A DNA stretch of 64,000 bases from Nemertoderma westbladi (lineage: Eukaryota > Animalia > Xenacoelomorpha): positions 1-64,000 of the forward strand of contig JAUCBJ010006468.1 in the NCBI GenBank assembly GCA_032718475.1, in the 5' to 3' direction. Shown here piece after piece: positions 10,381 through 64,000 of this stretch (within the stretch, counting starts at the first letter, position 1; each line of letters opens with the position of its first letter). Both the position numbers and the translations under genes were made by a program. Under the pieces are notes generated by a model. It had not been told where the DNA came from. It was given only the letters and a program-made list of their open reading frames with translations, and ran no database searches.

Positions 10381-10384
10381 AGGT

Positions 10385-34484: not shown

Positions 34485-34656
34485 GTCCCCCCCAATGACC
34501 TTCGTGAGGTCTATCGGTAGATCGAGTTTGCGTAGGTCATTTCCCATATAAAAAACCCAAAATTTAATATTGCATAGTCTTGATTAATTTGGCCTAGAGT
34601 TAATATATATATAAAATAAATGTTCAATATAAATGTTCCTGGAATATCCTGGTCCT

Positions 34657-39417: not shown

Positions 39418-42400
39418 TAGCCGTGATCTCGCAGAATGTTGTGCGGAGGGTGTCATGGGTTACCCGGGTGTCTCCTAATGCGACGCGCATGGATCGTTTT
39501 ACTAAGTCGATTAGCTTCTCACATACCCCACTCGTATGGGGTGCTAAGGGTGTTTGGAAGTGCCACTGTATGTATATGGTGGTCCCTCCAGACTTGGGAT
39601 GCGGTGTCCTCGGTAAACCACCCCTCGATCGCCTCTCTAAGTTCTCTTTCTCCTCCCACAAAGTTTGTACCATTATCGGAGTACATATGACGACATGTCC
39701 CATTGTTCGCCACGAACTGACGCAGGGCGTTGATGAATGCGTGTTGCGTAAGGTTCACCACGATGTCTAGGTAGATTGCCCTAGACCTAAGGCAGGTAAA
39801 GATGGCTCCCCAGCATTTGATGTTGGATCGTCGCTCGATGACCGTAAACGGTCCAAAACAGTCTACTCCGGTTACATAGAACGGTGGGGAATCGGACTGT
39901 AGACGGGTGTCTGGTAAGTCGGCCATCTTTTGTGTGAGTGGTGGCGCTAGATATCTTCTGCAGGGAAAACAACGTTTTAACACTTTCCGGATCAGTGGCT
40001 GGATGTGGGTGATCCAATACCTTTGTCGTATATTAGCTATAATCCAGTTCTGTCCTGCGTGATGGTTTTCCTCGTGACACTGTTGGATTAATTGCTTAGC
40101 TAGTGTCGACGTTCTGGGCTGAAGCGCTGGGTATTTGACCTCGTATTCAACCGGGGCGTTTGCCATCTGGGAATTCAGTCGGATCAGTCCGTCCTCTCCC
40201 ATCATTGGTCTCAGTTGGTAGACTGGGCTGTCCGGTTTCAAGGTCTTGCCCGCACTGAGTTGTTCCCACTCATCGGGGAAACTTTCTCTCTGGACATATC
40301 CAACAATACACTTCTCCGCGATAATGAGTTCTTGTATACTCCGTTGAACTATCGGCTTGTTGTCTTTCCACCGTAGGAAGTTACGAAGGGTTATAACGTG
40401 GTGGATGAGATGTCTCATTGATGAAGTTCGCTCGATCAACAGGTGTAAAGACGCCGCTGGTTGAGTGATCGTCGCGACGTTATAGTGCCTGCCCGAGTCC
40501 TTTGCAGGCTCGGTCAGACAACTATAGATTTCCACTGCGTTGCTTCTATGGACTTTACGGATCTCCTTGTCGTCTTCGGAGTATTTTCCGCTATCGAGTT
40601 CGGGATCGAATCGGGTACTCCAGGTTAATTGTGGCTGCTGTAAGAATTCCGGGCCTGTAAGCCAGAGTTTACTTTTACAGAGTTGTTTTGGGGTGGCGCC
40701 TCGACTTGATAAGTCCGCTGGATTTTCTTTCCCGTTCACGTGGTGCCACTGTTCTCGGCCAGTGCACTGTTTTATCTCCGTGGCTCGGTTCGCTACAAAC
40801 GTGGTGTGACGCCGTGATGGAGAGTGGAGATAGTAGAGAACAATACTCGAATTGACCCAGAAGTGTTGAGATTCGATGGGGATTCGTATGTTCCGCATGA
40901 CCATGCGGTTCTGTCTCACTGCCCAAACTGCGGTCTGTAGCTCAAGTCTCGGAATCGTTGCTACGAATTCCCCGGATACTGTCTTAGCTTTAGAAAATAA
41001 GAAGCTCATATCGCCGTTTCCATCGTTACTTAGTCTTCTTAAGAAAGTGACTACGCCGATTCCGGTATTCGAAGCATCCGAGAAGGTATGGAGCTGGAAG
41101 ATATCGGTGGGTAGTTTATCGAGGAAGAACAGTCGAGGGATCCACATAAGATGTAGGTGTTCGAGCTGTTCCGTCCACTTTCTCCATTTGACACTGAGGT
41201 GTGGGGGGAGTTCTTCATCCCATTCCCATCCCAGTCCTTCTATCCACATTTCCTTAATCAGATTCATTCCGGCCAAGGTTACCGGAGATATGAAATTTAG
41301 TGGGTCGAATATTGCACTTTTTATTGACAAACATCCCCTTTTCGTCATAGGCTTGGGTTGTGGGTTATATTTGAAAATGAATTCATCTGATTCTATGTCC
41401 CATTCAATGCCGAGTACACGGTGTTCCACATCCTCGGAATACATTTTATTGTCCAGTCGGATTTCTTCCGGAAACCTTTCCATAAGTTTTTTGTCGTGGG
41501 ATCTGAACTTCACGGGAGGAAAACCTCCTTTCTTTAGACATTCCACCATCCCCATCGCTAGCTGATATGCCTCGTCAACATTATCCGCGCCGGCGCATCC
41601 ATCGTCCACGTAGAAGCATCGTCGGATTGTTTCTATGACGGTTGGAGGGAACTCGTTTTCGCACATAGTTGCCGTTTTCTTCAGCATGTCACTACATGAT
41701 ACCGGCGAGTCCTTAGCGCCGAAGATCCTGACGATCAGGCGCATTACGTCTACATCCTTCAATGTAAGTTGACTAATCTCCTGGGGAGTTAATGTTTTAT
41801 CCGTCCATAATATACGCAGACAGTCTGAGTCTCTTGGTAGTGTACGGACCTGGTGAAACATCGCTTTGATGTCGCAGGTGAATGCTATCCAGTTTTCCCT
41901 GAACCTGATCAACACGCCAATGAGTGTACTGTATATGTTGGGCCCCGTATAAAGCTGGCTGTTCAGGGATTCGCCTTGATACATATCGGCGGCATCATTG
42001 ACTACTCGGATTTTACCACCCTTCCGGGCTTCTACCACATAGTGGGTTGGGAGATAATATGTTCTTTTACCCCCTTGCAGTTCATTCTGGGGTACCATTT
42101 CTGCTAATCCATCTTCGAGATATCCTTTGATTACATTATTATATTTCTCCTTTATCTCGGGTTGGTCATTCAGCCGGCGTAGGATCCCTTTAAGTCGCCT
42201 AAGGGCCATGTTGGCATTATTCGCCATTGGTTTATTTGGGTCCTTCCATAACATGGGTGAACACCAGTGTCCGTCTTTGAACGTGGCCTGATCAAGGACG
42301 TCAATACAATATTGATCCTCCTCGGATGGGTTTTCGTCCTTTTCAGCGAACTCTTGGGTCTCTAGATTAAAGTATTTAGTCATCTCCTGCTGGGTTTTCT

Positions 42401-43513
42401 CGGTCTCAAGAAACAAATCCTCGTCGAGGTCTGTAGCTGAACAATAACCCACGGAGGTTGCATTCTCTTTAATCTGACATTTAGGAAGGTATGTATAGGT
42501 GTCTGTAGTCTCTTCCTTGATACCGCAGAGTGTCCATCCCATGATTGTTCGTTCATCGTAAAAGCCGTCATCCTGCTTTATAGATCGGGCGACGACTCCG
42601 GTGGGTATGTGTAATTTCGGTGTGTCAAGTCCGATCAATAGGGTGATGCGGTTTACGTCCAACGGCGGGCACCTTAGGTCTACATCTTCTCGGTCCAACT
42701 GTATGAGAGGGGCGTATTCGGCTGATTGTCGGAACCGCACTCGGAGATCTGTGTATACCAAGGCGTACTTGATTGTCAGCTTAACCGTCTCGTAGCCCTT
42801 CATTACTCCTTCCATCTGGAGCTGCACCTCCCCGGAATCTACTTCTCTGTGGTCGGTGATAGTTTGTATGGGCCGTTTGCAAGGTTCATAGTCTAGGCCG
42901 AGTTGCTCGAGGAAATCCCAGTCAATGATGGTTCCGTCCGACCCGTTATCAAGGAACGCGAGCATTGTCAAGGATTTCCCGACCCCTTGAATTCTTACTG
43001 GGATTACTTTGGCGAAGACCATATAACGGTGATTTATAAGGTTGATCGTGGCTGAGATATTTGTCACTTGTGATACATCAGTGGAGGTTTTAAACGGGTT
43101 GGTTTCTCTCCATTGGGTCGTCCGGGTTCCTTTAGAAACGTGGTTCATTTCTCCTCTTCGTTTGGCTTCAATCCGAAAGGGGAGGGTGGTGAAGTCAAAG
43201 TTCGCGGGGATGTGGAGGAGTGTGTGATGACGTAGGTCATTACACACACCCCACACGATCTTTGGTCGCAATCCCGAACATAGTGACCGGTTCCAAGACA
43301 CCGGAAGCATCCTCGGTGTTTCATTATCACCTCGAAGAGTGGGACAAGTTCGGCAAACTGGAACTTCCTGCAGAATTCCATTTTATGTTTCTCTCCGCAG
43401 AAGAGACAGAGAAGAGAGTTTGTGATGCCTTCCCTTTCAGGTGCCCAATTCGCAAGATAACACGCCCATTCCTCGGCTGATGTCGGTTCCTCGTAGTCTT
43501 CGTCGTCGGAATC

Positions 43514-45739
43514 CTAAGCCATGGTGATAGCCATCGTACTCACCGGAGGGGGACGGAATCTCGGTTTCTGAGTGGGTGTCTTACTCCTGGAGTTGCTCTC
43601 TATTCCATCTAACTTGGCGAGACTTTGTTTCGAGAACATCGAGTCATTCATGGCTTCGGAGATATCGTCCAGGAATGCCGACATTTCGAGGAAACTGGGA
43701 TCTCGATCTGGGTGTCTGCGCCGGAGATCTACGCATTTATAGGCCCACTTACTTTGCAGCCATCCGGGGAACTTTCGGGCGATCTGTCGGAGGTTTAGAA
43801 TGTTGTTTACTTGTTCCTCCTTATTTAATGGTTTTAGAGTGTAGTAGGCATCCTTCATGGAATCTGAGAATTCCTGGATATTCTGTGGGTCCCCTAGGGA
43901 TCCCGCGTCCTGTATCAGTTTCTCGAGAGTTTTATTAATTATAGTCCCGATATTTCCGTATCTTTTATCTAGAGTTTTCCATGCGTCATAGTATGCCTCA
44001 TGAGCTCCTCCCTCAAAGCATGCGATAATCCGGCGTGGTTTGTCACCCAGGTATTGGGATAAATATACTAGTTTTTGTGCGTCGGCTATGTCCGTTGACC
44101 CAATCTCCGCGAAAAACCGTTTCTTGAATCTGAGGTAATCGAGTGGATCTCCTTCGAAGGTGCGGATCTCCATCTTGGGCATGGCCAGTCGGTTCTCTAA
44201 TGCCCGGATAATGCCAACGTCGTCTGAGCCGGAATGACTAGGAGGGTTATAGTTATTGGCACTCTCTCCCATACACGATGGATCGATGATAGGTGGAGTT
44301 TTAATGATGACACGGCTACGGATTTGTGGTGTGGATGTAAATGGGTTGTTGGATCGGGGAGTGGCGACCCGTTCCGAGTCCTTTTCAGGCTCGTACTTGG
44401 GAACGCTCGGGACCGTGGGATTGGCTGGGATATAAGGTTCCTCATTCTTAAGCGTAACCAGTGGGGGATGGAATACCGGTGCTTGTGTCGATAACGTAGA
44501 CTGTATGGTAGGCGGGAACTCGGGTTTCGGAGGTTTCACCGCCGGTGTCGTTAATGACTTCTCTAATTCTGGTATCGGTATTGGTTCATAGTTCTGATCT
44601 ATACCCCTTTCCCAGTCCTCGTATATTTGAATATCTCGTTCTATAAGCGCGGCTTCGTATTCCGCGAGTTTCGCAATATACGCATTCTTTTTGTGGGTGA
44701 GAATCGCTTGGGCTTCGGCGTGTTGTTTACGCATTTCTGCTTCCCATTTACGTTGTTCGATCTCTCGTTCGGCCTCTCGTCCACGTTGTTCAGCCTCCTG
44801 TTTGCGTTGTTCGGCCTGCCGTTCGGCCTCTCGTTCACGTTGTTTAGCCTCTCGTTCACGTTGTTTAGCCTCCTGTTCGCGTTGTTCGATCTCCTGTTTG
44901 GCCTCTCGTTCGCGTTGTTCGTCCTGCCGTTCGGCTTCTTGTTTGGCCTCTCGTCTACGTTGTTCATCCTCTCGTTCGCGTTGTTCAGCCTGCCGTTCGG
45001 CCTCCTGTTTGGCCTCTCGTCTACGTTGTTCAGCCTCATGTTCGCGTTGTTCGGCCTGCCGTTCAGCCTCTTGTCTATGCTGTGCGGCCTCCTGTTCGGC
45101 CTCTCGTTTTTGCATTTCGGCTGCTAATACATCTTGCTCGACTTGCAGTTGAACATACTCATCTTCCATCCGAGCTTTGAGGGCTAATGCCTTCTGTTCT
45201 CGTAGCTGATCTCGGAGTGGCTGACCCCCTTGAGAACTGCGTGCCGAACCGGACCTCTCGCTGGAATGCTGGTTCCTAGAGGACCCCGTTCTCTTTCGAT
45301 GAATTGCTGTCCTGGTGCTGGAGGTTCGCACTGATTCTGAGTCTGTTCTTTCCGCTCTATTATAGTACTGTTCCTCGTAGCCTCTAACGAGGCTGAGGGT
45401 CCTCCGGTGTTGTTTGCGGAATTCGTCTAGATGTACAACATGTTGCTCTAATCTGGGGTAGTTTACCTGATCGGTGGCGGGAATGAGTTCTTGATACGCC
45501 TGTATCATCCTCTCATATCGTTGTAAGATACTCCGGATATTCTGAAGCTGAGTTTGTATCTCATTGAGGGGAGTTTCGACTCTCTTGAGTTGTTTCTCTA
45601 TACGTTGATACGCTCGAGTGACTCCGCCTTTGAGAGCGCCTAGTCGACGGGTCATGTTCTTGACATTCGGTACCTCGTCGGCTTCTGAGTCTGTGTTGGT
45701 GTCCATCTCGTCGGTGTCGGAGACGTTGTTTGTCGTCAT
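43514..45739 (-). CDS. gag: Element D gag (741 aa; frameshift before the zinc knuckles)
   Basis: PKMEIRTFEGDPLDYLRF, KLVYLSQYL, AWKTLDKRYGN (BEL gag core) plus a coiled-coil repeat. Confidence 0.9.
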   Translation of the reverse strand: MTTNNVSDTDEMDTNTDSEADEVPNVKNMTRRLGALKGGVTRAYQRIEKQLKRVETPLNEIQTQLQNIRSILQRYERMIQAYQELIPATDQVNYPRLEQHVVHLDEFRKQHRRTLSLVRGYEEQYYNRAERTDSESVRTSSTRTAIHRKRTGSSRNQHSSERSGSARSSQGGQPLRDQLREQKALALKARMEDEYVQLQVEQDVLAAEMQKREAEQEAAQHRQEAERQAEQREHEAEQRRREAKQEAERQAEQREREDEQRRREAKQEAERQDEQREREAKQEIEQREQEAKQREREAKQREREAERQAEQRKQEAEQRGREAEREIEQRKWEAEMRKQHAEAQAILTHKKNAYIAKLAEYEAALIERDIQIYEDWERGIDQNYEPIPIPELEKSLTTPAVKPPKPEFPPTIQSTLSTQAPVFHPPLVTLKNEEPYIPANPTVPSVPKYEPEKDSERVATPRSNNPFTSTPQIRSRVIIKTPPIIDPSCMGESANNYNPPSHSGSDDVGIIRALENRLAMPKMEIRTFEGDPLDYLRFKKRFFAEIGSTDIADAQKLVYLSQYLGDKPRRIIACFEGGAHEAYYDAWKTLDKRYGNIGTIINKTLEKLIQDAGSLGDPQNIQEFSDSMKDAYYTLKPLNKEEQVNNILNLRQIARKFPGWLQSKWAYKCVDLRRRHPDRDPSFLEMSAFLDDISEAMNDSMFSKQSLAKLDGIESNSRSKTPTQKPRFRPPPVSTMAITMA

Positions 45740-45927
45740 TCTAGCGCTTCGTTGATAGCTAGATATGCGATGTCATAAAAAAGTTCTTCGTAGCTCTCGT
45801 ACTCGGCTTGGACTACCCGAACGGTAATCCTGAATCGTCCGACGTTCGTTCCTTGTACTTCAACCTCGACGTGCCAGATTCCTGGCTCAACTTGGATTAT
45901 GTCAATAGGTGTGATCGATACTTCCAT
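45736..45927 (-). CDS. 63-aa upstream ORF overlapping the gag start (ATGA)
   Basis: ATG start, globular-looking composition, and a TGA overlapping the gag ATG at 45736-45739. Confidence 0.5.
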   Translation of the reverse strand: MEVSITPIDIIQVEPGIWHVEVEVQGTNVGRFRITVRVVQAEYESYEELFYDIAYLAINEALE

Positions 45928-46173
45928 TCCCTGTTAACGACTCTCTTATATGTGATCTGCCGACTACGAGTTTTTTATATCGAGTTTGTTGATTGATTAA
46001 ACCACGGCTTTATCTTAACTCAAATACCAGAGTTTCCTCGTAGTGGGTGCTGGGTAAGCACGTAGAGAGTTTGAAGAGTATTGTAGGATTCCCAACTTCC
46101 ACCAGTTGGAGTTGGCCGCGTTTTATTCTCAATTTTGACAGCCTGTCAAAATTGATCCACTTATTCTCAATTT

Positions 46174-47701
46174 TGTTGCCGTTATTCCCGACACCATGGG
46201 GGAAAAACGCCGATGCTGAAGGCGGAACTTTTCAGACCATGGAATCCCAGCCAGTCACCGGATATTGATTGTGGAGAAGGAATACGTTCTTAAATTCAAG
46301 ATTGCGGTTGAGGAAAAGCTTCATTGGTTGGATATACTCTTTAATGTAACTTCCCTACAGTTGAACCTTGTTCAACATTGAATCTTGATTGAGAATAAGT
46401 TGGGCTTCCCCAAATCAATATACACCAAATATTCACAATAATAATACACGACAATATAAATCCCTACAGTATATTATTTAATTACTGCTCCGAGTTCGCT
46501 CAGATTTTAGCCTAACTAATGTTCCCCGTTTTTCCCTCGGTCCTAGTCTTGGTGCCGTAGTGTCGGTGTCGGTCGACCCTGTTGCGTGTCCGTACCACCC
46601 TTCCCGAACCCCGAAGGGATCGGTCATCAGGAACCAGTACGGCTTGGCTAAGGGTCGGTCCAGTCGGTAGACTGTGTCGCTTATCCGTACCACCCCTCCC
46701 GAACCCCGAAGGGATCGGTCATCGAGAACCAGTACGGCTTGGCTAGGAGTCTGTCATGTCGGTGGACCCGTTCGCGTGTCCGTCCCACCCCCCCCCCCCC
46801 CCCCCCCCCCGAACCCCGAAGGGATCGATCATCGAGAACCAGTACGGCTTGGCTAGGGGTCCGTCTGTTCATCGCAGAGACGCAACCACCTAGGCTTTCC
46901 GAGTCCTTATTCAGGCTCGTAGTCGCTTCGGCAGCCGAGAAACTGCTCCAAACAGTCGGTAGGCCAGTAGAGTCCAGTCCTTTGTCTTTCGACCCCGTTG
47001 CGTGTCCGTCCCACCCCTCCCAAACCCCGAAGGGATCGATCATCGAGAACCAGTACGGCTTGGCTAAGGGGTCTGTCGTCGGTTCCCGTCGCAAATCCCT
47101 GGCACAGGCAGCAGACTTTCCGATGTCCTTTTCAGGCTCGTAATAACTGCTGTTGACCAGAGACCGCTAAGGGCAGTCCTCATCAAACCCTTCCTCTGTT
47201 AGTCGGTCAACCCTTTCGCGTGTCCATACCACCCGTCACGAACCCCGAAGGGATCGGTCATCGAGAACCAGTACGGCTTGGCTAAGGGGTCTGTCATCGT
47301 TTCCCGTCGCAAATCCCTGACACAAGCAGCAGACTTTCCAATGTCCTTTTCAGGCTCGTAATAACTGCTGTTGGCCAGGGACCACTAAGGGCAGTCCTTG
47401 TCCTTTAAACCTAGCGATACCAAATCCACCTCTACAGGCAGCAGGAAGTTGGCTAGGCCTAATAGTAGTCAGGTAAACCTGAATACTGCTTAACTTTTCC
47501 TTCCCCCCCTGGCCCTTATATACATGAAATGAGTCCCGTACCCCGTAAGTCGCCCCAATATTCGCCCATAAATCGCCCCCAGTCCATCGAGTGTGCCCAA
47601 AACCCATGTTCCCGCACCCAGTAGTTATATCGGAATAATCATCTTAAATAAATCCAAAAAATATTCAACTCGCGTTATGAAAAGTTGAAATACCGCGAAC
47701 A
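46174..47701 (-). repeat. 5' LTR of element D
   Basis: Direct repeat of 32977-34484. Confidence 0.95.
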
Positions 47702-48959
47702 GTTGTATGATAATTTTTTTTACTAAAAATGTTCTAGAACAAAAATATTTATCAACATTTGGTAGCTTATACGTGTTCTAATATAATATTTAACAATATT
47801 TATAATATTTATCAAAATTTATAGCTAGCACTTCTTTTATAATATTTATTAAAAAAATAGCATAAACTAGCTATTATAATAAATCTGGTAAATGGGTACC
47901 CAAGGTGGATTAATGCCATTTATTTGCACTTGCACTGTTGTAACCCATGCACTGCAATATTGTTCCATAATTCTAAATAAAATGCTCAAGCAAAATGCAA
48001 CATTTTTACTCTCGAGATTTTTCAACACTCGATATTTTTCAACACTCGTTATTTTTACTCTCGATATTTTTCAACACTCGATATTTTTCAACACTCGATA
48101 TTTTTACTCTCGATATTTTTCAACACTCGATATTTTTACTCTCGATATTTTTCAACACTCGATATTTTTACTCTCGATATTTTCAACACTCGATATTTTT
48201 ACTCTCGATATTTTTCAACACTCGATATTTTTACTCTCGATATTTTTCAACACTCGATATTTTTACTCTCGATATTTTTCAACACTCGATATTTTTACTC
48301 TCGATATATTTCAACACTCGTTATTTTCGATATTTTTCATCTCGCGTTATTTTTACTCTCGATATTTTTTAATCACGTTAATTTTCAACACTCGTTATTT
48401 TTACTCTCGATATTTTTACTCTCGTTATTTTTACTCTCGATATTTTTCAAGTCTCGATATTTTTCACCATTACCAGGTACTTGCTCGACTTCTGGAGCCA
48501 GTAGGTGGAGTTACCATCACCCCATTGATCTAATGATATGCGTAGAATTTAGACAACCCACAATTATGAACAAGAACAGCGCAAGTGTGTCGCCCTGGAG
48601 GACTGCTGCTTAACATATTGATATCTGTTTGATGAAAATTGAATGAAAAATAAAAAAGTAGTAGGGAATTTAGTGATGAAAAATGTCTAAATCGGCAAAC
48701 TGAGAAAATAATTTTGTGTTATGCAGAGAGTCATGAATATCATCCATATATTAATTGCTAAAAATTGCAGTTTTTTTAGTCAAAAAATCATTCAATGGTG
48801 AAAACCGATGTCATCACAAGAAAGCCCTCCTATCAAATATTATATATTTTTTAAATTTAGAAAATTTATTGCCTCTCCATCCAATTTAATAGACCTATAT
48901 AATGTAAACCGTTTTTTTTCTTGGAGATATTTATATATTGAAAATATTTTATCTTGCAG

Positions 48960-50224
48960 AATCAGCTGGATCATTTGTTATTCCTGCGCGTTTTGAAAGT
49001 CAGTCTGTTAATGGCCATGAAGCTAAATGTGGCTACAAAATCGCCGCCACATACTATTATAATGACGCCACATTGAGATCAGTAATAGATGCAGCGGACT
49101 CTTGTTCTCAGGAAGTCGCTGTGAGTGGAACAGGAATCTATACTCCTGATCTATGCTGGTACGATCAGCGGCAGGGCGAGCACGATTTCAGTATTTGGCT
49201 CGGTGGCAATGGTGATTGTCACCAGAGCGGTGGGTATTGCGTTACATCATTCAACGTTCAGGATAAAGATTTACTCCCTATCAAGAGTTTAGGTTTGGGT
49301 GATACGGGTGCCGACAGCGAGCATATCAATTGGGAAAAAATCGGGGATATTACATGCCATTTCGACAGTTGGCTCGAAATCCCGGCGTCAGTTCAGAGCC
49401 ATACTATCTCAGGGGCAGAAGCAAGATGCAGTTATTCTATGCCTGTCGCATATCCCCAGGAACCTTGGCATACGAAATACATTATGGATATGTCTGATAT
49501 ATGTGTGCAGAATATTGGTATAACCTCGAAACAAGTAATGTCTGGAGACCTTTGCTTCGCTAACAAAGGAACCATGAATAATGATGAAGAAATTATAGAA
49601 ACCAATTTCGTGGACGTGGGAGCTACACATTGTGACCAGTCGTCAAATGAATGCACCCAGTACATCCTTAATATCAATGAGGCCCCAATAGTAGAGCTTA
49701 GATTGGGTGATACTGGCCATGAATCCGAGTACATCAGCAGCGAATTTGTTTCCCCTATCTACTGTAAACCACCCTATTATTCCTCACTTCCCCCAAAGGT
49801 AACATACAAAGCTCATCTTGAAAGTGGCTCAGTTAATGGCGCAGAAGCTAAGTGTGGAAAAGATGTAAATGTTGTGTATGATCGTCCCATTGATAATATC
49901 GCAGAGTCAATGCGAAAGTTGCTTGAATCTGGATTACCATATCTCTGTTATCAAACGGTAGTGATTAATTCTCGTTTAGCAGCATCTGTGGATCAATGTT
50001 GGTTCGGATATGATAATGTTGAACATAATTTCCACGAAGAAGGGAAGGTTCAATGTAATCAGAGCAGCAATTATTGTACGGAGATGTTCACTATCACTGA
50101 TCCGAATCAGTTGCCTCTAATCAAGCTCGCCCTCGGGGACACTGGACACAGCACTGAAGTCATCCACGCAATCGCTGTCAGTGATCTTGTTTGTGAAAAT
50201 CCTATTGGCAATATTGGGATTTGA
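48960..50224 (+). CDS. Host gene terminal exon: secreted protein with three tandem ~135-aa Cys-rich domains (Caspr/neurexin-IV fibrinogen/COLFI-like)
   Basis: Acceptor ttgcag at 48959. Three repeats of S-x-x-G-x-EA-[KR]-C...C-x-Q...C-[WF]...C-x-QS...C...[LA]P-[IL]-x-x-L-x-LGDTG-x-x-[ST]-E...C. AATAAA at ~50247 and ~50299. Family assignment from motif recall only. Confidence 0.8.
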
Positions 50225-51613: not shown

Positions 51614-53510
51614 TGTAAGGGTCCAGTAGTATACCGCTTACCAGATCCTAGTAACGATGTATCTTACTATGAGACTCTAGTAATGTATACGGGCTCGTAC
51701 AGTATCTGACAACAAATCCCAGTCCAGGATATCTAAATAAACAGATACAATACACTAACGACTACTGGCGAGGAACAGAGCCTAGTATCTATTCTATGTA
51801 CGTGAGCGGGTCTAATGCCTACGTACTAGACAAAAGGATACCTGTCCTCTAACCGGTGAGGCAGATGTACAGTTACAGTAACAGACCAAACTCACGGGAA
51901 AACAATCCCCGCGCAGCGAATCCTAACTATCACTGACAGTCCTAAATACAGTAACTTGCCGCGGTGTGATTTATATGGTTTATATACGAACTAGGTGGTT
52001 AACAGACCTAGTGTAACAATGCTGATTACCCCTGTCTAAATCAGCCTAAAAGTCGTGCCTAAATGTAACGATAACTGATCCCCCTGTACGAAATCAGTCT
52101 AAAGGGTCAGGCCTAAATGTAACAATACTGCTGGACAGAAAACAACAGTTTAATAACGAAAGTGAAATACTCCTTATTGCCGCAACTAAATCAGATCCTA
52201 ATTTTACAAATACAGATAATTTCTACCTAAAATAATGTATAGTGCGCTATAGCTAGTAGAACTCTAAGGGCAATATGTTTTAGGGCGTGTGTGTGTGGGT
52301 GTGTTACAAATAAAACAATTTTGTGTATTTCCTTTTACTAGGTTTTAGTGATTTTCTGACCGAAATGATACCGTGCGCTAGCTACTAAAATAAACTAGTC
52401 GCGTTTTGTAGAACTTTATACTCACAAATGACGTCAAAGCTCTCTCCTTCCTATCCACAACCCAATGGGCAACCACGGTGTTAGTAACTACACCCGTGAT
52501 CGGCACTAATACCAGATTCTGGTTGTAAGATAAGAAATAGGGGTTAATCGCTACCGTACGTTAGCTGATCTGGTATACTAATTTAATTCTAGAATTTTGT
52601 TGCTGCGGTAGTTAGCAGCAATACCTATCAGTACGTGGCAAGGCGCGGTAGGATATTAATAAACCTCCCTAGGCCAAGCAGTGTGCCGGTAGCAGAAATA
52701 CTCCTTGCCTGATCAAATAGCTAACTCCAGACAGGGGGGGGGGGGGGGTAGGGGGGGGGTACTAATGTACGTTCTACAAAGCGAACCGGTACCAAACAGT
52801 CAATACTACGAATCACTAAATTATGGAACATATGCTGTCCGTACCTAATATGTACTCGCGTACTGACGAATGGCAATAGTTCGCACCTGTAGGAAGTACA
52901 GGTTAACCCAGGGGTTCGTAGGACTGACAAGGGGGGGGGGGGTGTTTCTGTCTGAATATAATTATTTGATCCTAAATTTGCGGCGTCCAGGACGGCGTCA
53001 CGCTTACCCTGATCTATAGGTCTTACGGCGGGCAAGGGCGTCGAACAAAGTCTTACCTTCTCACAAAGCGGGCGCTGCATGGCAAGTTGAGCATTTCGAA
53101 GGGCAAACGGGGTGCGCGGTCAATCCAAATGTGGGCGCTAGCGTGTTGTGGACATCTTTTCCCTGCGTTGCTTACGGCCTAACGGTCTAGGCTGCCATCT
53201 TCCTGATGTTTGGCTGTCCCAAAGTTGGACCAAAAGAAAACATGTTCAGGAATTTGCAGTATATTTACAGTTTTACAAAGGATTTATCAAATAAAGTTTC
53301 AACAAGAAACCGAAATAAACTAATTTTACAAGAATAAGAGAGTGTGTAGATAATAACATAAGTGATAACCGAAGGCAAACCGGCCTTTTTATACTAAATA
53401 TCGCACATGGAAACCAAACAGAATTTTCCACAGCTTCACATTTAAGCAATAAAGTGCTTCGTACCCTATGATTGGCCGAGCTCATCGTTCAACGCAATCC
53501 GGCCCTTACA
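51614..53510 (-). repeat. Putative 3' LTR of element E
   Basis: tgtaagggtcc at the satellite break and ggcccttaca at 53501-53510 form inverted termini. The partner LTR is outside the window, so the inner boundary is tentative. Confidence 0.5.
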
Positions 53511-53679
53511 CTAATCTGGGACATGGAATCCTAACAGAATTTTCCACTGCCTCACATTTGAGCAATAAGATAATTTATGCCCTATGATTGGCCTGGCTCA
53601 TCATTCGCTACGTTGTATGCTTCTCATTGGTCCACCAATTAGCACCAAACGAAAATAAATGGCCCCAAAATACAAATTT

Positions 53680-53749
53680 CCCGACCGGGATTCGAACTCG
53701 TAACCTATGTAATGTAACCAACGCCTTAACCATCTGACCACTACGCTAC
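53680..53749 (-). other. tRNA-derived sequence (pseudo-tRNA or SINE head)
   Basis: gtagcgtagtggtcagatggttaaggcg...gagttcgaatcccggtcggg has A and B boxes, but the acceptor and anticodon stems do not pair well. Confidence 0.6.
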
Positions 53750-54526
53750 GAGAGTACCTAAGGGTTTTATGTGTACAAATATGAATAGGCATATTACATT
53801 ACTGTAACTTAATCAAAATGCGTCGGATTTTCGAAAGTTTTTACATTAAAGTTAAACTACAAATGCTACCTTATAGTGAAATAATTCATCACCGCTCCAT
53901 GAAAACAGTAAGTAAGACTGTTTTCACCAATCGAAATATAAAATATTTACAAACGACTTCTAAATCTACTGGTAGGGCCTAAAATATAAAATATAATCAC
54001 TATCTAATTATTGCATACTTAATATTGCAGATACGGCGTAAATACAATCGATCGTACATACAAATACAAATTTACTAATTAACTTTAGTGCCTAAAATAC
54101 AAAAAAAGGCTTTCGGTTATCAATGTAAGCAAATTAAACAAATCAGAACAAATAAATCAAAACAAATCGAACAAATAATTGTAACTCTTTCGATAAATCT
54201 TTATATATTGTAAATATACATAATAAACCTTCACCAAATTAAATCAGTCCAATATAAAATAAACATAATGCGCTAAAATCCTTCAAAATAAGTCTTAACG
54301 TGTCCTCCTGACGATCTAAATAGTTCGTCCTGCTGGTCTGGATATCTTCTCCTGAGCATTAATTGCTAACGGTAGGCTCGCAAGCCTTCCTTTCCATATC
54401 TCGCTCCTCCAAACCCAACATTCAAACATAATGTCCAATATAAATATCCAAATATAATATCCAAATAAAATATCCAAATAAAATATCCGAATCGGTAGGC
54501 TCGCAAGCCTTCCTTCCACTCGCTTC

Positions 54527-55045
54527 CTATTCCTTCGCTGAGCGGGCTCGTCCACGTCCTCTAGTGCGATTGGGGGGTGGTCGAGGTCGAACTGGGCTCG
54601 GACTTCGGCGTCGAGTCGTCGGTGGTTCCAAAACGCTAGGAAAGGGGACGACGGGAGTTTCGCACATCCGTCGTGCGCTCAATCCTCTAAATCCTCGTCC
54701 GATTCCAACTGACGGCTTAACATCGGATCGAGTTTCTACAACGCTAGGAGGAAGTCGAAAAGGTAGGACCGTTCCGTCCGTTGACACCTCGCTCTCTGAC
54801 GTCGTTTGAATCCTAATGGGTTCAGTCAAAGTGTATCCTGTCCCTCCGCGTGGTTCTCTAGCAAGGGAAACCGTGCCCCGAGTCATCCGGATTTGCGACT
54901 TCGATGTCGTCCTCTCGGCGACATTTACTATCTTCTTAGTCTCTTGTCCGGCCTTCTGGGCTTTGAGTATACGAAATTGCTGATCATCCTGTGGGTGACG
55001 CGTCTTCTCTGCTAACGGCGTGGCCTTGAAGCCAGTCTCACGCAA
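54527..55045 (-). CDS. Basic R/S/P/T-rich ORF downstream of the E exonuclease gene
   Basis: 172-aa frame ending RRRSPSPVRPRPPPNRTRGRGRARS. An ATG overlapping the previous stop (55131-55133) may be the original start, offset by a frameshift. Confidence 0.45.
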   Translation of the reverse strand: MRETGFKATPLAEKTRHPQDDQQFRILKAQKAGQETKKIVNVAERTTSKSQIRMTRGTVSLAREPRGGTGYTLTEPIRIQTTSESEVSTDGTVLPFRLPPSVVETRSDVKPSVGIGRGFRGLSARRMCETPVVPFPSVLEPPTTRRRSPSPVRPRPPPNRTRGRGRARSAKE

Positions 55046-55129
55046 AACGTCGGTCTCGTCCAGAATGCACGAGGTTACGCGTTTGTGATAAAATGCGCTC
55101 CGGTATGCCCAAGCTATCGAATGCCAGGC

Positions 55130-57347
55130 TCATCGATTCCGCTGTTCAACTCGCAGTTTATCGAATTCTCCGGCGGTAATCTTGTTCACCACAGTTTGAA
55201 AGTTCCAAGTATTCTTGTTGTCGGGGTGCACTTGTAAGAAATAGTCCCGCACAACTTTGAATCCACTGTCCAACGGCAATATATCCAATACCTCCAACAA
55301 TTCATCGTACTGAGGCATAGCCGATACATATCCTTCCTTTGACATTATGAGAGGGTTTACGGCCCAAAATCCCAAATGTGCTCTCATAGGGAAGCGGCGT
55401 CGCTGCGTCGATACATGTTCGTCTGCTAGATCCTCCCAATGGTCGAATAATTGTCGAACGATTTTAACTGACATGTGCTCATAGGGGACGTCTCTAAGTT
55501 GACATTCGGATGCCCTATGGCCCTTAATATTACAATAAGTACACTGCGCCACGAAACGCCAGCAAGTGTAGAAAGTGTGCGAACGTTGATCCCCGCACCA
55601 GTTGCATACTAAATCCGGTAGAGATATGTGCTTCGCTCCGCACTTCTTTGCGTGATGGCCAGTTGCTCCACATCTGCCACAAATAGTGTTGGCAGGATAC
55701 CAAACTCGCTCATAGATGAGATCTCCGATGGGGCGAGCGCTACCGTCCACGTGATAATTCTCATCATCCGGGTCAGTCGGTATGTTCGTCTCCGTAGGTT
55801 GTACACAAACCATGGCATCGCTTTTCTCCAACTCGCGTATCTCAGTTCGCGTCTTCCTCGGAAGGTTCTCCTCTATTTCTATGAGTTGCCGTAACGGTTT
55901 GTCTATTAGCGCCAACTCGGTCGGATCCACATCGTCATGATGGGCGGTAGGCTCGCGAGCCTTCCAGGATCCTTCCGGGCATTCGAATTCCGCGTGGCGT
56001 TCCCCGTCGTAGGGTACTAACGTTAACATCGACGGTCTGTCGACTAGACTTCCCGCGTGAGTGAGATAGACGTCCCTGAAAACGCTAAGTCCCGCTCGCG
56101 TGAAAACTTCGCAGTGCGCATCGGTGTTATAAAAGGGTTGGAGAAATCGTCGGAATACATCAGTATGCGTCCTTCCTCCATCGTAAAAGGTATGTCCTTC
56201 GCCAAGACATAACGGGTGTCGCTTTAGGGTTCTGGATACTACGTCTGCGATGAAACAAACGTTAACCGAAGATTCTATCGCTAAATAGTATTGCAAGATT
56301 ATCCGCGGAGGTGAAGTAATCGCCCAATACACGCAACCTCGCCACTTCAACTGTGACTCGAACTCGTTTACGCCGGGGGTATCTCCCTCTCCGTATACGT
56401 CCGTGTATTTGTTCCTCTTACTCTCCTTGTAATCCCAACTGAACATTAGATATGAGATATAACCCGTCCCAGTTTTTAGCGTGTTATACTCCCTAAAGTA
56501 TCCTTGCTCAATAGCCCAAAGCAACAATGGTCTAGTATCCACGTATGGCGTAGGCAATCGGTCCTCTTCCGTGGGCATCCCGGCAAAGTCGCTAATGAGG
56601 TCATCCCGTACACCGGATCCGATCTTGACGATGCTCTTATCCAACACAACGTCTCGCACGGCCTTTGGCAACATCCTAGCTTCTATGCTACAAGCCAGGT
56701 CCATGGATTTAACTATCCGTTTTATCATCGCGTGTCTTTGCGTCGTTCCTTCCGGCATAGGCATCTTCCTATCACTCCTCTGTCGGCTGAAGACATGTAA
56801 CACGCCATCTGGTGCTCTAATCTGTATAGTCTTTGAAGTGAGGCTTTGCTGATGGCTTCCTCCTTCATTATCGTAAAACATATAACCATTCTCTTTCAGA
56901 GATCGGCTAGTCACGTCCCAATCGTCGAGTAAATCGTCGGTAGGGTTCCAAATTCTCCCAATCGACTTTTCATCATAGAAACTAATAGGTTTACCGGTCC
57001 AATTGGTCGCGATATCGGTGTCGGTCTCAAACGTTCCAACTCCGATCCATAATTGAATCGTTTTCGTCAGATATCCTCGCAAGATACAAGGTGCGATATC
57101 CGTCCCCGCGCGATCCACTTCCTTAAAGTCCGTGATATGTGGAGGCACGTTGCGTACGATTTTTTGAACTATTACTTTACGCAACTCGGCTGACTCTAAC
57201 ACATCACCGAAGGTAACCGATGGGAGGAAATCCAGGTTCGAGATGATCTCCGGGTGTTCAACTATAGGGATCTCGTAAGTTGTCTCCTTCCGGGTCGGTA
57301 TACTAATAGGAAAACTAGTTGGTCTCGCAACCGGTACTATCGCTCCA
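55130..57347 (-). CDS. Element E accessory gene, 3' part: DEDD 3'-5' exonuclease plus three CCHC zinc knuckles
   Basis: MFYDNEG, IQI, LPKAVRDVVLDKSIVKIGSGVRDD, VDTRPL, TGTGYI, LQYYLAIES; CGRCGATGHHAKKC, CNWCGDQRSHTFYTC, CTYCNIKGHRASEC. Uninterrupted frame of ~740 aa. Confidence 0.8.
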
Positions 57348-59102
57348 GGCACGTTCCACGGTAAAGTACGTGACTGTCAGAGACCAATTTTTACATTCTT
57401 TTGCAAATTACATATATCCAACAGTCTTCATAGAGCATCAACTTGTGATATTCTGAGAGACAAAGTATTCTGCTACACGTTTAGTATAGAAGCTAAACTT
57501 CTTAGTGTAAATGGCGTTAGTAATCATCAACCAAACGCAGGTAAAGTACGTGACGCGCAGAAATTTTAAAATATATTTTTTTTAATGTAAGTCCAAAATC
57601 CAGCGAATTGAGCAACTTGAGGTAATAAATGAGTCCACAGCAGCCAAGAGGTAATATTGCTGTTTCCAAAACAGCCTTTATTGACATTTCAAACCTAACG
57701 CTATTCGGTGAATTTGATGTAAAACAAAGTAAAGTACGTGACATTGCCAAGTAAAGTACGTGACCCATGCGATTTCATTCGAATATCCAAATCTATTTCA
57801 CCCCGCTTCCATGCGGCAATATATTTTTACAATCCAATTTGGTAACGAAATTAACTAGAAACAGATTCTATCATATTTTTAAAGACCGGGTGATTGAAAA
57901 TAATAATCAAATTTTGATTAACCAACGGTTATTATAGTCCATGTTTCGCTATTACACACACTGGTGATATCATGTATTGTCTTTTTTATTGTGCAGTAGT
58001 CGCAGTTCGTATAGCGTGATGGGGGATTGCTTATTCTTAATGACGTTGCCACGGCCCTAGCTGTATCTGTATCGAGGTTACCGCTAGGCGCTATGGTACT
58101 GGCACGTTTCTAATTAATTAGAACCATACTAAGTCTGGGGGAAAATGTTGCTGTCATCTCATTAACCATGGGCCATGCGCGCGTTATCAATTATTGATAA
58201 TATTTAATTGGTTGTCTCTGGGGAAACAATAGTTCATAACAAATGGACTTATATCACCCCACCCTGATCTGTTAGACATATCGTTTTGCATGCTTCAGTT
58301 GCAGGTGGATAGAGTTGTCATCCAATAGACGCCGAGCTCCTCCAGGTGTCCTGATGGGCAGGATTCACAGTGTGTGATGCGCTGGCACTGCTTAAGTGGT
58401 CAGTTATAGTCCATACAACCGTTACCTACTTTACGGAAAAATATTTTTATGTCACGTACTTTACGAAAAAATATTTTTATGTCACGTACTTTACGAAAAA
58501 ATATTTTTATGTCACGTACTTTACGAAAAAATATTTTTATGTCACGTACTTTACGAAAAAATATTTTTATGTCACGTACTTTACCATTGTAAATGTGTCA
58601 AAAGCACAGAATTTTCGAGAAATGTTCAACGCAAAACATGTAAATATACTTTAATATTGTAGATTCCACTTTTAGTTCCCATGGAGCTAAATTTGACTTT
58701 ATATAATAAAATAATACATATTTTTGGTAAAGTACGTGACATTCAAATTGCCTCATTCAAAAATCAAAAGTATTAGTCAGTCAACTCGTTTTAAATCATG
58801 AACAACGTGGCATTGCATTCCCAAAATGTATATATTCCATCTGAAAAGGCTGAAAATAGCAAAACTGTATTGCATTGTATCAAATTTTCAAAAAACAAAA
58901 TGTCTCTAATTTTGACAAAAAAATTGAAATTTTAACGCACCAGCTACCAGAGTAATTTACGATACTAAAATTTATAAATTTGAGATTTATAGTTGCAGAT
59001 TCGTATTCTGCGATAAATTTCGATCTAGTAAAAGTTCACAAAAGCCAACAATACCTAATTTTTAGAAATGAGCCCTTGGTTGACGTTATCGTGGAACGTG
59101 CC
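57348..59102. mobile_element. Non-autonomous TIR DNA transposon (1755 bp)
   Basis: TIRs ggcacgttccacg(g/a)taa, TSD TCCA at 57344-57347 and 59103-59106. About 10 internal gtaaagtacgtgac motifs in both orientations, including a 30-bp tandem array at ~58425-58586. Confidence 0.85.
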
Positions 59103-60041
59103 TCCAGTAGAATGGGGCTGAGGTTCTCGCGTCATCTCGACATGAGGTATCTGTAGTCTCTGCGAAAAATGCTGAGCAAAGGTGATACTATCGAAGAGCT
59201 CGGGTGTCATCTCCTTGGGTTCGGTTTGATCGTGGGATATCCAATAGAATGGTAGGCTCGCGAGCCTTCCGCCGAACTCCTCGATCTCGCCTTTCTCGTA
59301 CGTCTTGTACGCCCTGTAGAGGCTCAAAGCTTCCCGTTTCTCTTGTGTCGACTTATTAGACTCGTCCACTACCATGCTGTAGACGTCTGGTTCGACTAAT
59401 TTAGGTTCGTAAATAACGATCTCACCCGCGTTCGGTCCACTCATTTTAAACGAATGATACGGATTTGTCAAAGGGTATCCGCCTTCTTGGTAACGTAGAC
59501 TTTGGTGGTGTGAACATCGCGCTAATATCGGCTCGGGGTTCTCCGAGTTCAACCGCATAGGAATCGCGTTGTCTTGCTCGCGCATACACGCTCCACATTT
59601 ATAAAACAGTTTGTATATGGAGAACGCGTCCTTGGTCTCTGGATCCGCTCCTCGAGCGCGTCTATAAAGATGCATTCCTTCAAATTCGTCTCTAGCTGCA
59701 GGTAAGGGTTCGTTTACCGTCAAATATTGCAGCGTATGATACAATCGGCGTATTTCGGTGTCTGGATCCTCGCAAATGTCGCTAGCGTCGCATAACGCAT
59801 CGTAGGGATATAACGCATTGTACTCCAAGCGTAATTCCTCCGTTCTTTTGTTGTATGCGTCCAACCGCTGTCGCGTAACATTCGGGTCCGCCTTGGATTT
59901 AGCGAGCTTGGCCGTACTCCTAGCCACACTCTCCACTCCAAACACACTAAAGTTTTTAGCTCCATAACGATTGAATGGCGCCTGGTGCTCTTGTTCTTGC
60001 GTAAACCCTTGACGTAACTCTTTATACATCTTCTCCGCCAT
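59103..60041 (-). CDS. Element E accessory gene, 5' part (313 aa), in frame with 55130-57347 after transposon removal
   Basis: ATG at 60041 with CGAC...CSHH motif. The junction rebuilds ...HSTG-AIVPVARPT... Confidence 0.78.
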
Positions 60042-60777
60042 CGTATACGAATATATATGTGGTTACATATCGTTACGTTTCTACTAGATGAAGCACAAAA
60101 TAGAGGTTAGATGTGAGGTGACTTAGAGTTTGTCGGCTTTGGCTCAACTCTGCTCTAAACCCCAACCCATTTTGCCTAATGATTTCGGGTTCGCGTGATT
60201 TCGCACTGGCTCCTAATCCAAAAAATGTGCCGATAAAAAACGAATTCCGGGTAAACTAGCCGCGAGTCTAAAATACTCACCTTTTAATTTCCCAAACTAC
60301 GTTTCCAAAGAAAAATAGTGCAGTCGAGAATTAATTGGTCTAAATAATAGTAGACACGACTACGTAGAACAAGACCGATTTTCTTTTCCAAAAAAAAATT
60401 TTATCAGTAGGCTCGCAAGCCTTCCATCCGCTCTTGTCCTCCCCAAATTTAATTTTTATCTAGCTGTATTCTAGAATTTGCTTTCACTGGAGAATCGTTT
60501 TTCTTAAATTTAAATCCAAATAAATGGATTTGTCTAATAAATTTTGAAAAATGTCTCACTTGTGGGTTCCAAGTGGAATTCCATTCCTACTGTACACACA
60601 ATCCCGCCCCTATGTGATACATAAGGGTACTACCCTCCATGTTCACGCATAAAGACAATGGAATTCCACTGCTGTCTCTATCTACAGTGAAGAGGATTAC
60701 AAATGCACGTACAGTAATACAAATACAAATAACTAAAATACAGTAGGTCTATGTGGCGGCCGATCAAGGTCCCACAT

Positions 60778-63700
60778 CTATTTACTAATATTGGGTGGAG
60801 ATTTGTAGTCTCCCGTCTCGTTTCTAGTCTCCTCAAGGAGCACGAGACGTTGTACAGGCCTATCTACGGTACGTCCGTCGATAGTCCTTACAGTAACTGT
60901 CCTCACTACACCAGATGTAGGGTGCGTGGTCAAAATGACTCCAGTCAGCCAAAACCGTCTTTTCAGATTAGCTTCAGCCAATAAAACATGGTCACCATGT
61001 CTTAAACATCGGGTATTTAGATACCAAGAGGTTCTGGTTGAAATAGAGGGCAAATAATATTTCTGCCATATTTCCCAGAATTTATTTGCAAGTAATTGAG
61101 TGATTTTCCAAGCCTTGTTGCCGTATCCGTCACTATCAACGGGTACCGAAATGGGCAACAATGTCGTTGGCGCCTGCATAAGCAGGTGCACTGGTGTCAA
61201 GGCAAACTGTACGTCGTTATTGTCTGGGATCAAAGCGATCGGTCTGGTATTTAAGATTGCTTCGATTTCTATTAGTAACGTCGTTAGTTGGTCGTCTGTC
61301 AAGATGTGTTGCGTCGGTACGACTTTAGCCATAGCTGTCTTTATTGAGCCAATCAGCCTTTCCCAAACGCCGCCTCTCCACGGACTGTCTGGAGTATTGA
61401 AAAACCAAACAATACGGTGAGGACGTAGTTCCTCTGAAATCTGGTTTTGGTCCAACTTTCTCAAAGCTCTGGTTATTTCGTTCCGTGCACCCACAAAGTT
61501 TGTCCCTTGGTCGCAATATATGGATTTGACCAATCCACGTCTAGCGATAAATCGCCGTAAGGCTAGGATAAAGGCATTGGTGGTCAAGTCTGTCACTCGC
61601 TCTATATGGACAGCTCTGCTGGCCATGCAAGTGAAGATCAATCCCCAACGTTTTACCTGTACCCTTCTGCGTTTCGCGATTATGGGTCCAAAACAGTCTA
61701 TCCCTGTCTCAGTGAAAGGGGGTCTAAACGCCTGTAATCTAGCTAATGGTAGTTCACTCATTTCTTGGTGTCCTATCCTCGCGTGCACCTTCTTACAAAT
61801 AATACAGTTCCGTGTTACCGAACTCAGTGCCTTACTAGGTCTAATCAGTACAAACCTCGAGAAGTGTGATAGACAGTGGTGTCTACCTACGTGTTTGAGT
61901 TGTACATGTGCGTCCAGTATCATAGCGCGCTGTAATTCATGGTGTTGCGGTATGATGATAGGATACCTAAAGTCAAGTGCAAAGTCGATGTTTTGGAGTC
62001 TGGACTTGTGACAAAGTAAGCCCCGGTAAATAATCGGACTCCAACTCAAAATCGGTGAAGACTTAATCTGTTTACCTTGTTTGATCGGTGTGAACTCTCG
62101 TGCGAAATATCGCAATTGATAATGTCGAATGATATCAACTTCACAGTGGCCAATTTCCTTTAAGGTAAGTCTTCTAGGAAAGTCGCGTTTGCCTCTGGCA
62201 TATTGTCTCAATCGTTTGAGCCATGCTAACTTGCGGCACGCGTCAGTCCATGATCTAGTTAGGTTCACTATCCTGTCAATGTAAGTGTTGGTGACGTCAT
62301 CAGGTAAGGTGTAGTCGTAGTGTGGATACTTGTCTGGACTTGGTAGGCCCACGGGCCTTCCGGTAGGTTTGTCTGAGTCCCCAAGTACGTCAATCTCTAC
62401 GGTCTTACCTTTACCGTCCGCACCTAATGTGTCGACTGGCAGTAATGGTTTCAACTCTACAGTGTCAGTGTGTTCCTGTGAGCCTGTAAGCTTCCTAACC
62501 TTAGTCACACGTTTACCTGTAGGTAAGTCAAGTACCTTCTTCGAGCGGAGTGTAATCCCTGTGGCCACACCTTTGTCGTCCAAAGAAGTCAAATTTGGTG
62601 AGTCTCTAAAGGTCCGCTCCAATGGGTCTTCTAATGGAGTGTCTAGTAGACAGTCTGGTGAAGTGTCTGGTGAACAGTCTGGTGAGACGTCTGGTGAGAC
62701 ATAGCGCGGAACATCCGGCGAAATGTCCTGTCGTCGGTCCCAAAGTCTGTCTAGCGTAACTTCTGTCAGAAAGTCTAGTCCAAAGTCTGGTCTAAAGTCT
62801 GGTGGACAGTCTGTCGAGATGTCTGGTGGAAAGTCTGGTGAGACGTCCGGTAGACATTCTGTCGAGAGTTCCATCAAACAATCTGGCGAACAATCCGGAG
62901 AACAATCTGGTGTCGCTTCTGGTGAATAATCTGGCGAGTAATCTGGTGAACAATCCGGCGAAACATCTGGTGAAATCTCCCGCGGAACATCCGGCGAAGG
63001 ATTCGTACAAGCGTCTGGTCGAATGTCTGGTGAGACGTCTGGCGTAATGTCAGGTCTGGCATCCAGGTCATCAGATTTCGTCCGTCCTTTTTTCCTCTTG
63101 ACCTTGGCGTTGGCTTTCGCTTTAGACTTGACAACCTTGTCGAGTTTTATCTCGGCACCCTCTGGTATGGTGTTGGTTGTCGCGTCGAATAACGGTGGCC
63201 ATTCGTCTGATGGTCGCTGTAGGAAATCGGGTCCTCTAAACCAAAAGGATTTATTGTCCGGTTTACAAAAGTCAAGCGGTTGCATCCCCCGTGACGCGAT
63301 GTCAGCTGGGTTCAGCTTCCCTGGACAGTGACGCCAATCTTGTTTGAGCGACCGGTCTAATATTTCAGCCCGTCTGTTGGCTACGAAAGTCTTGAACTCA
63401 AATGTTTCGTTGTTTATGTACCAAAGTACCAACGTCGCATCCGTCCAATATGTGACCTTCAAGTTAGCCTCCAGCTCGCGTTGAACTAGACTGACAATAT
63501 CTGTGGATATCGTCCCGGCTTGCAGCTCCCCACGAGGTACAGTCATATACTTCAAAGGCATTGTTCTAGCCCTTGAAGTAACGAGAGATACATCGTAGCT
63601 GTCCGATGTCACTTGTCGTCTAAGGTATAAAGTAACCCCCAATCCATCCTTGCTAGCGTCACTAAAGCTGTGAAGCTCTAAATCGGCAGGAAAGGTGGTT

Positions 63701-64000
63701 TGCAAAGGAAAGTATACCCTCGGTATGGTATAGTCTTGTAGGAACGTCAGTTGGGCTTCCCAGTCCCTCCATCACTCAGCTAACTTTTCTGGGATGGGAT
63801 CGTCCCATTCCAGTCCGGCTTGCCAAATGCTGCGGAGTATGATCCTAGCATGCAGGATCACTGGACTAATGAAACACAATGGGTCATACAATCGACTCAT
63901 AGTCGATAAGCAAGTCCTCTTAGTGAGAGGTCTAGTCTGGTCGTTGGACCTTACACGTACCCTAAAATTGTCGGTGTTAGGGTCCCAACTAAGTCCTAAT
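60778..64000 (-). pseudogene. pol: Element E pol 3' part (RT end, RNase H, integrase); in-frame TGA at 63772-63774
   Basis: ELHSFSDAS, VPRGELQA, NPADIASRG, HHCC, GIDCFGP, YCDQGTNFVG, GGVWERLIG, GVVRTVTV. BEL-like sequence continues in frame upstream of the stop. Confidence 0.93.

Follow-up and report, generated by a model that had tools for sequence, protein, structure and literature searches.

A third gene of a BEL/Pao retrotransposon lineage in Nemertoderma westbladi with a predicted DEDDy-fold exonuclease and zinc knuckles

Introduction

The stretch of DNA examined here (the window: 64,000 nucleotides, positions 1 to 64,000 of contig JAUCBJ010006468.1, assembly GCA_032718475.1) comes from the xenacoelomorph Nemertoderma westbladi and carries part of a BEL/Pao long terminal repeat (LTR) retrotransposon in which pol is followed by a third open reading frame (ORF3). 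ORF3 is real and belongs to the BEL/Pao element. The lineage of this element is multi-copy, and ORF3, its third gene, would encode a predicted 3'-5' exonuclease of the DEDDy fold, the zinc knuckles of which likely hold single-stranded RNA during trimming from the 3' end, a reading to which we give an even chance.

Only gag, pol and env are listed for the Belpaoviridae (PMC8742986). Nuclease third genes occur in the Juno and Vesta LTR retrotransposons and the Terminons of bdelloid rotifers, which have a DEDDy exonuclease ORF3 with a DEED motif (accessible part of PMC5408684). The present case extends this gene type to BEL/Pao, in which two families that diverged deeply have retained it, with signs of selection. 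To our knowledge, few protein counter-measures to small-RNA silencing have been described in animal LTR retrotransposons. The domain layout of ORF3 fits an enzyme of known mechanism, RNase D of Trypanosoma brucei (TbRND), and its nuclease is a single unbroken domain, the activity and substrate of which are directly testable.

Organization of ORF3

Features lie on the reverse strand of the window unless stated otherwise. Upstream of ORF3 is the end of pol with RNase H and integrase (60778-63771, 997 codons, extending toward the window end), which matches Peptidase_A17 (expect value, E, 1.5e-18) and DUF5641 (E 3.1e-18) in a Pfam search, carries the motifs DAS, DCFGP, DQGTNF and WERL, and resembles ORF3 in guanine plus cytosine (GC) content. 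Its Pao-type RNase H region followed by an integrase with DUF5641 (the RNase H-integrase order) corresponds to BEL/Pao membership. Between RNase H and integrase (62600-63100) there is also a long linker of 12-bp repeats (SPDC/SPDV-like).

ORF3 is a separate reading frame downstream of pol with its own start codon, and its ATG lies 737 bp from the pol stop. An earlier note on this DNA had described two frames of 313 and 737 codons, and the open reading frame list confirms this layout: an N-terminal part (59103-60041, 313 codons, ATG at 60041) with a CxxC...CxxH domain and no match in the Pfam search, and a middle part (55133-57343, 737 codons) comprising a DEDD-type exonuclease domain, an acidic linker, three CCHC knuckles and a short conserved domain behind them. 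The note's estimate of about 1050 aa with no other lesion than the insertion described below has to be revised: a premature stop at 55130-55132, private to this copy, is a second lesion, and behind it a basic, Pro/Arg-rich tail of 200 codons (54527-55129) continues in phase. Because the stop is missing from other copies and the 200-codon frame is in phase, the intact ORF3 is about 1,250 codons in length, and this copy has two lesions.

The first lesion is a non-autonomous terminal inverted repeat (TIR) insertion of 1755 bp (57348-59102, no strand assigned) with a TCCA duplication at 57344-57347 and 59103-59106. The insertion and its 4-bp duplication are as first described; the inverted repeats match at 13/13 and 16/17 positions, and contigs show the empty site. 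Its GC content is 35% vs. 48-49% in the flanks, and it holds no reading frame of more than 99 codons. The termini are GGC, the target-site duplication (TSD) is 4 bp in length and an internal 11-mer is present ten times, in both orientations.

Contigs from four public runs (X1, X3, X4, and X5) were compared with 54600-61700; X1, X3, and X4 represent three studies, one possibly being the source sample of the assembly, and X5, which we guess to be RNA, has little cover. Empty-site joints (a 1759-letter skip) occur in three of the four runs (X1, X3, and X4), and the premature stop is missing in 100% of the covering contigs (17 in X1, 15 in X3, and 1 in X4; none in X5). The median contig depth of ORF3 relative to the insertion is 50x, 32x, and 9x in three runs, and that of the integrase end relative to ORF3 is 2.1, 1.6, and 0.64 (1.6-2.1 in X1 and X3); as contig depth is no copy number, these values are taken solely to indicate that the sequence is repeated and that its copies usually lack the insertion. 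Deletion joints removing most of ORF3, including nuclease and knuckles, are present in X3 and X4. Loose contig ends lie at 60236 and 60600 (X4 and X5) and, also in X1, at 60285. These ends suggest the existence of sister families that have the integrase end in common and differ in the sequence downstream.

No membrane segment was detected in ORF3 (highest 19-residue hydropathy, 1.48); likewise, hydropathy gave no transmembrane anchor and the Pfam search no env family that would make it an env gene. Farther downstream, 53372-53606 contains a 119-bp repeat in two copies with CCAAT boxes, as well as a TATA-like box, and a tRNA-like stretch is found at 53680-53750, where, as in the rest of the search, ARAGORN reported 0 tRNA genes. 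These stretches are probably part of the 3' LTR of the ORF3 element; an LTR boundary and a polypurine tract were looked for around the CCAAT/TATA-like region (~53370-53610) and none could be fixed.

Linkage to BEL/Pao elements

The window also contains a complete BEL/Pao element, here element D (32976-47703), with LTRs 95.6% alike, a 5-bp TSD (ACAAC), gag at 45772-43514 and pol at 43382-39519, encoding a Gag with DUF1759 and a reverse transcriptase with YVDD. Its span of 14.7 kb includes simple-repeat stretches. The LTRs (33322-34180 and 46524-47400), given as 1.5 kb vs. 0.2-1.2 kb for the family, contain internal repeats of 95 and 218 bp. A homolog of ORF3 (35056-37079; tblastn E 1.4e-11 over 240 columns, BLASTP E 1e-12) is located between integrase and 3' LTR, showing YDNEG, KIGSDIKAD, and YVIME and then the knuckles, which are in another frame (zf-CCHC_4, E 0.002). 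This homolog is broken by a stop near 36855 and by a frame change ahead of the knuckles. The pol of element D and that of the ORF3 element are just 33-35% identical, so that ORF3 is either old in the lineage or has been exchanged between families.

A third element, A (LTRs at about 7053-8157 and 20367-21483, TSD CGGTC), contains a broken accessory frame (10389-10814) that resembles the N-terminal domain of ORF3 (BLASTP E 4e-10, 31% over 103 aa). An exonuclease was not detected in element A, and the occurrence of this domain without a detectable nuclease points to a modular ORF3: the N-terminal domain is common to element A, and nuclease and knuckles are common to element D. The surrounding accessory region (8158-11500) is long, is frameshifted and gave no Pfam match; an integrase match is absent from element A, and the element is interrupted at about 11870-13354 by a non-LTR insertion of RTE-like type, which has a 205-bp duplication. 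No tRNA primer-binding site of the TGG type was found immediately behind the 5' LTR of element D (46130-46175) or of element A (20330-20367). Peptidase_A17/RNase H, integrase and DUF5641, together with the LTRs and 5-bp TSDs of elements D and A, are as in BEL/Pao elements.

These data bear on whether ORF3 might be a host gene, or part of a separate element, that adjoins the BEL integrase by accident. Within the window the ORF3 element has no bounded LTR pair, which counts against assigning the gene to the element; its 5' end, with gag and reverse transcriptase, lies beyond the window. Moreover, no single contig of the four runs spans integrase and ORF3, and the integrase end is 1.6-2.1x as deep as ORF3 in X1 and X3. 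However, the earlier note had named ORF copies unlinked to BEL as the outcome that would speak against its proposal, and the homolog in element D instead sits inside an LTR pair with a TSD. In addition, ORF3 has no introns, a multi-copy-like depth, a six-copy motif in common with the integrase ORF (see below) and a GC content like that of pol. An accidental neighbor is therefore considered extremely improbable.

The predicted exonuclease and the zinc knuckles

WRN, EXD2, MUT-7, and the PF01612 family have in common the pattern LP...L.D..I.K.G....D, VD, and W...YxxxD/E. ORF3 is like these proteins in its motif pattern and its neighbors in the Atlas, and unlike them in having no direct match to a hidden Markov model (HMM). 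The predicted exonuclease core (56270-56875) contains YDNEG (ExoI, 56875-56861), KIGSGVRDD (ExoII, 56626-56600), and YYLAIES (ExoIII, 56290-56270), and the three knuckles (55502-55681) have the spacings CX2CX4HX4C, CX2CX5HX4C, and CX2CX4HX4C. A pattern scan thus recovered, at the sites first claimed, YDNEG, the ExoII block, YYLAIES with E for the usual D, and the three CCHC knuckles; the latter reach E 0.0054 for zf-CCHC in Pfam, below the curated cut-off.

In a joint alignment, D158 and E160 (ExoI), D248 (ExoII) and Y353 and E357 (ExoIII; residues counted in the 737-codon part) coincide with the catalytic columns of RNase D. The DNE of ExoI aligns with the DTE of RNase D in both ORF3 and element D, and D248, aligned with the RNase D residue, is invariant in an alignment of three sequences (A2). 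The signature in both BEL copies is predicted to be D-E-D-E(Y), here labeled a DEDDy-like variant because the strict ExoIII motif YxxxD is lacking.

The features of ORF3 score 0.92 to a Werner-like PF01612 cluster of the Atlas (the family being on 38% of its members), with 161 shared features, fewer than the 170 typical of true family hits. When the three-sequence profile was aligned with an RNase D/PolA-exo profile by hhalign, a score of 32.7 (probability 30.7) was obtained, which none of 100 column shuffles reached (maximum, 20.9). A phmmer search of 1.84 billion representatives yielded two matches, one of which (P0001, 558 aa, E 2e-5) corresponds to ORF3 in its nuclease region, in all three knuckles and in the domain that follows. 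The catalytic sites of P0001 are canonical (DTES, D, and YLRGD, YxxxD being kept). Its Atlas model, with a predicted local distance difference test (pLDDT) value of 0.44, compares with PF01612 proteins at a template-modeling (TM) score of 0.60-0.67 in the top row, all seven rows listed being PF01612. Atlas neighbors are named Werner-like and PF01612 (34-38% of cluster members), and those of P0001 include PolA exonuclease domains. The second phmmer match (P0002), a plant protein aligned at the knuckles only, was rejected. Word-indexed protein searches with P0001 and, at longer lengths, with alignment A2 returned only P0001 itself, and a search of this kind with the 737-codon part gave no match.

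A number of results weigh against a DEDD nuclease. ExoIII reads YxxxE in both BEL copies, although tyrosine and an acidic residue are kept. The hhalign alignment spans ExoI-II without ExoIII, at a probability of just 31%. No nuclease match was obtained in Pfam, NCBIfam, PHROGs or PDB sequences; the PF01612 profile matched none of the three alignment members at E 10, and an HMM of 11 bacterial DEDDy domains scored the three proteins not above shuffles. AlphaFold models had pLDDT values of 31 (one sequence) and 36 (three sequences). With the second model, Foldseek produced no match with E <1.5, EXD2 chains at ranks 2-6 not being significant, and the best VIA-align Z (4.5) was to unrelated helical bundles. 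Missing library matches and low-confidence models are what would be found if the motifs resembled those of DEDD nucleases by chance and the domain were something else. Against chance, the conserved columns of three divergent sequences coincide with ExoI, II, and III, the Atlas features of ORF3 and P0001 as well as the P0001 structure model point to PF01612, and shuffled profiles fell short of the hhalign score. A chance resemblance is thus rated very improbable, and a DEDDy fold for the ORF3 nuclease is, from sequence comparison, highly probable; that the predicted nuclease is catalytically active is somewhat better than an even proposition. Helicase, HRDC or MUT7-C domains were not detected in ORF3, and metagenome and viral contigs held no related loci.

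Accordingly, the element D homolog, the predicted fold of P0001 and the hhalign score relative to shuffles support the earlier proposal that the element encodes a nuclease of DEDD type, with three knuckles, at the place of env.

Selection on ORF3

Differences between this copy and the contigs were considered among the 40 of 560 that were listed; 14 are in ORF3, or 13 without the stop site. All seven ORF3 differences that segregate among copies are synonymous (expected fraction for transitions 0.33, p 4e-4), two of them sitting in the ORF3 tail, and all six that are private to this copy are non-synonymous. This pattern fits a selected gene together with a decaying copy, and ORF3 is apparently under selection. 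The strength of this point is reduced by its basis, 13 of 560 differences, and by the 98.5% cut-off between segregating and private differences, which was picked after the differences had been seen.

A hairpin-shaped motif and a possible adaptor role

A hairpin-shaped motif of 19-20 nt occurs six times along the element (62342-62361, 60407-60426, 59251-59270, 55946-55965, 54494-54513, and 54371-54390), vs. 0 copies expected by chance; one of them, at 62342, has a compensatory pair in its stem. The copies are found in coding and non-coding parts and in different reading frames, and both the integrase ORF and ORF3 hold the motif. It is a candidate packaging, export or protein-binding signal. Five of the six copies were folded, and their stability did not exceed that of shuffles (z -1.2 to 0.1). 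The motif is absent from elements D and A, and element D has no other dispersed repeat of at least 11 letters.

The motif bears on an alternative in which the DEDD fold is kept and the nuclease is weak or dead, ORF3 being an RNA-binding adaptor, such as Egalitarian, EXD1 or Maelstrom, that binds RNA of the element itself, perhaps through the six hairpins, and serves its export, transport or packaging, in a role like that of CERV of Cer1. It would accommodate the D-to-E change of ExoIII in both BEL elements as well as the six hairpin-shaped repeats, of which one has a compensatory pair. The structural family in question includes Egalitarian, catalytically dead DEDD derivatives occur in piRNA (PIWI-interacting RNA) pathways (accessible part of PMC5408684), and an LTR element is known to have an RNA export factor, CERV (accessible part of PMC10309623). 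On the other hand, two families with pol at 33-35% identity retain the tyrosine and all four acidic positions, the sites of P0001 are canonical, and element D has the gene without the hairpin, the hairpins themselves being no more stable than shuffles. A purely adaptor function is accordingly judged possible but rather unlikely.

Proposed mechanism

If ORF3 is an active nuclease, its mode of action may be sketched from a cellular enzyme. In TbRND (PDB 7C42 series) a knuckle array provides RNA binding and increases cleavage (accessible part of PMC7797062). Like ORF3, TbRND as described there has a DEDD exonuclease followed by a CCHC knuckle array; it differs in being cellular and mitochondrial, with four knuckles close behind the nuclease, whereas ORF3 has three after a linker of ~200 residues. 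No sequence match between ORF3 and TbRND was detected, so that the architecture may be convergent. With single-stranded RNA gripped by the three knuckles, the nuclease would shorten it from its 3' end, and ORF3 would act as a two-metal exoribonuclease guided by its knuckles; the fold and the D-E-D-E-Y sites are deduced from homology, and the knuckle-guided mechanism by analogy to TbRND. Considering its own start codon and lack of a membrane segment, the product would be an accessory protein, soluble and synthesized separately from Gag-Pol, and, as ORF3-deleted copies exist, it would act in trans.

The substrate is a matter of conjecture. If the enzyme is active, host small RNA aimed at the element (anti-silencing) would be our first guess, ahead of the element's own RNA ends, and we hold it tentatively, at somewhat less than an even chance. 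A fuller version, in which an active, knuckle-guided D-E-D-E exoribonuclease destroys or trims host piRNA or small interfering RNA (siRNA), with modules swapped among BEL families and possibly recruitment by the hairpins, is unlikely in its entirety. If true, it would represent an element-encoded counter-defense enzyme in an old BEL/Pao lineage.

Alternatively, the nuclease could work on DNA inside the particle, either proofreading reverse transcription or trimming cDNA ends prior to integration. WRN and DNA proofreaders belong to the DEDDy enzymes, and PolA exonuclease domains are among the Atlas neighbors of P0001. In Dada DNA transposons a DEDDy domain inserted in the DDE transposase was proposed to process DNA ends (accessible part of PMC3706591), while ORF3 is a separate gene of a retroelement. 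This separation from pol, with an own start, leaves ORF3 no obvious route into the particle; furthermore, CCHC arrays beside this fold bind RNA in TbRND (accessible part of PMC7797062), and replication proceeds in most BEL elements with no gene of this kind (PMC8742986). An action on DNA is thus regarded as quite improbable.

Relation to published elements

The closest published counterparts are the rotifer ORF3s, which, like the gene described here, are third genes other than env located downstream of pol, encode RNase D-like DEDDy proteins with a shifted acidic motif and have no membrane segment. The accessible part of PMC5408684, where activity of the rotifer proteins is not shown, allows several differences to be drawn: the host element here is BEL/Pao, and the rotifer DEED motif is not found in ORF3, which has D-E-D-E. 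ORF3 also possesses three knuckles of the CCHC type and an additional N-terminal domain, and it is about 1,250 codons in length. The same text gives no departure from neutrality for the rotifer ORFs, whereas the BEL ORF3 shows a synonymous bias. General protein searches returned no Juno or Vesta ORF3 matches, the rotifer sequences not having been compared directly.

With regard to novelty, which the earlier note had left unverified with a pointer to nematode Cer elements, the literature search found no BEL/Pao case; novelty is nevertheless lower than first rated, because DEDDy ORF3s have been published for rotifer LTR elements (accessible part of PMC5408684). That text states, citing Malik 2000, that such nucleases had not been reported before in retrotransposons, which, at second hand, argues against an earlier report of a Cer exonuclease. 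The word exonuclease is absent from the accessible parts of PMC8742986, PMC3118150, PMC554778, PMC9094657, PMC2774666, and PMC12440569, and those of PMC6431247, PMC5718144, and PMC11662393 contain no BEL case. Thus, no published BEL/Pao exonuclease gene was found in the open literature, Repbase, most subscription journals and supplements lying outside the search; unannotated elements of this kind may be present in the sequence supplement of PMC3118150.

Elsewhere in the window, the forward strand contains a 438-codon, Cys-containing reading frame with internal repeats and no Pfam match (48908-50224), which is probably part of a host gene.

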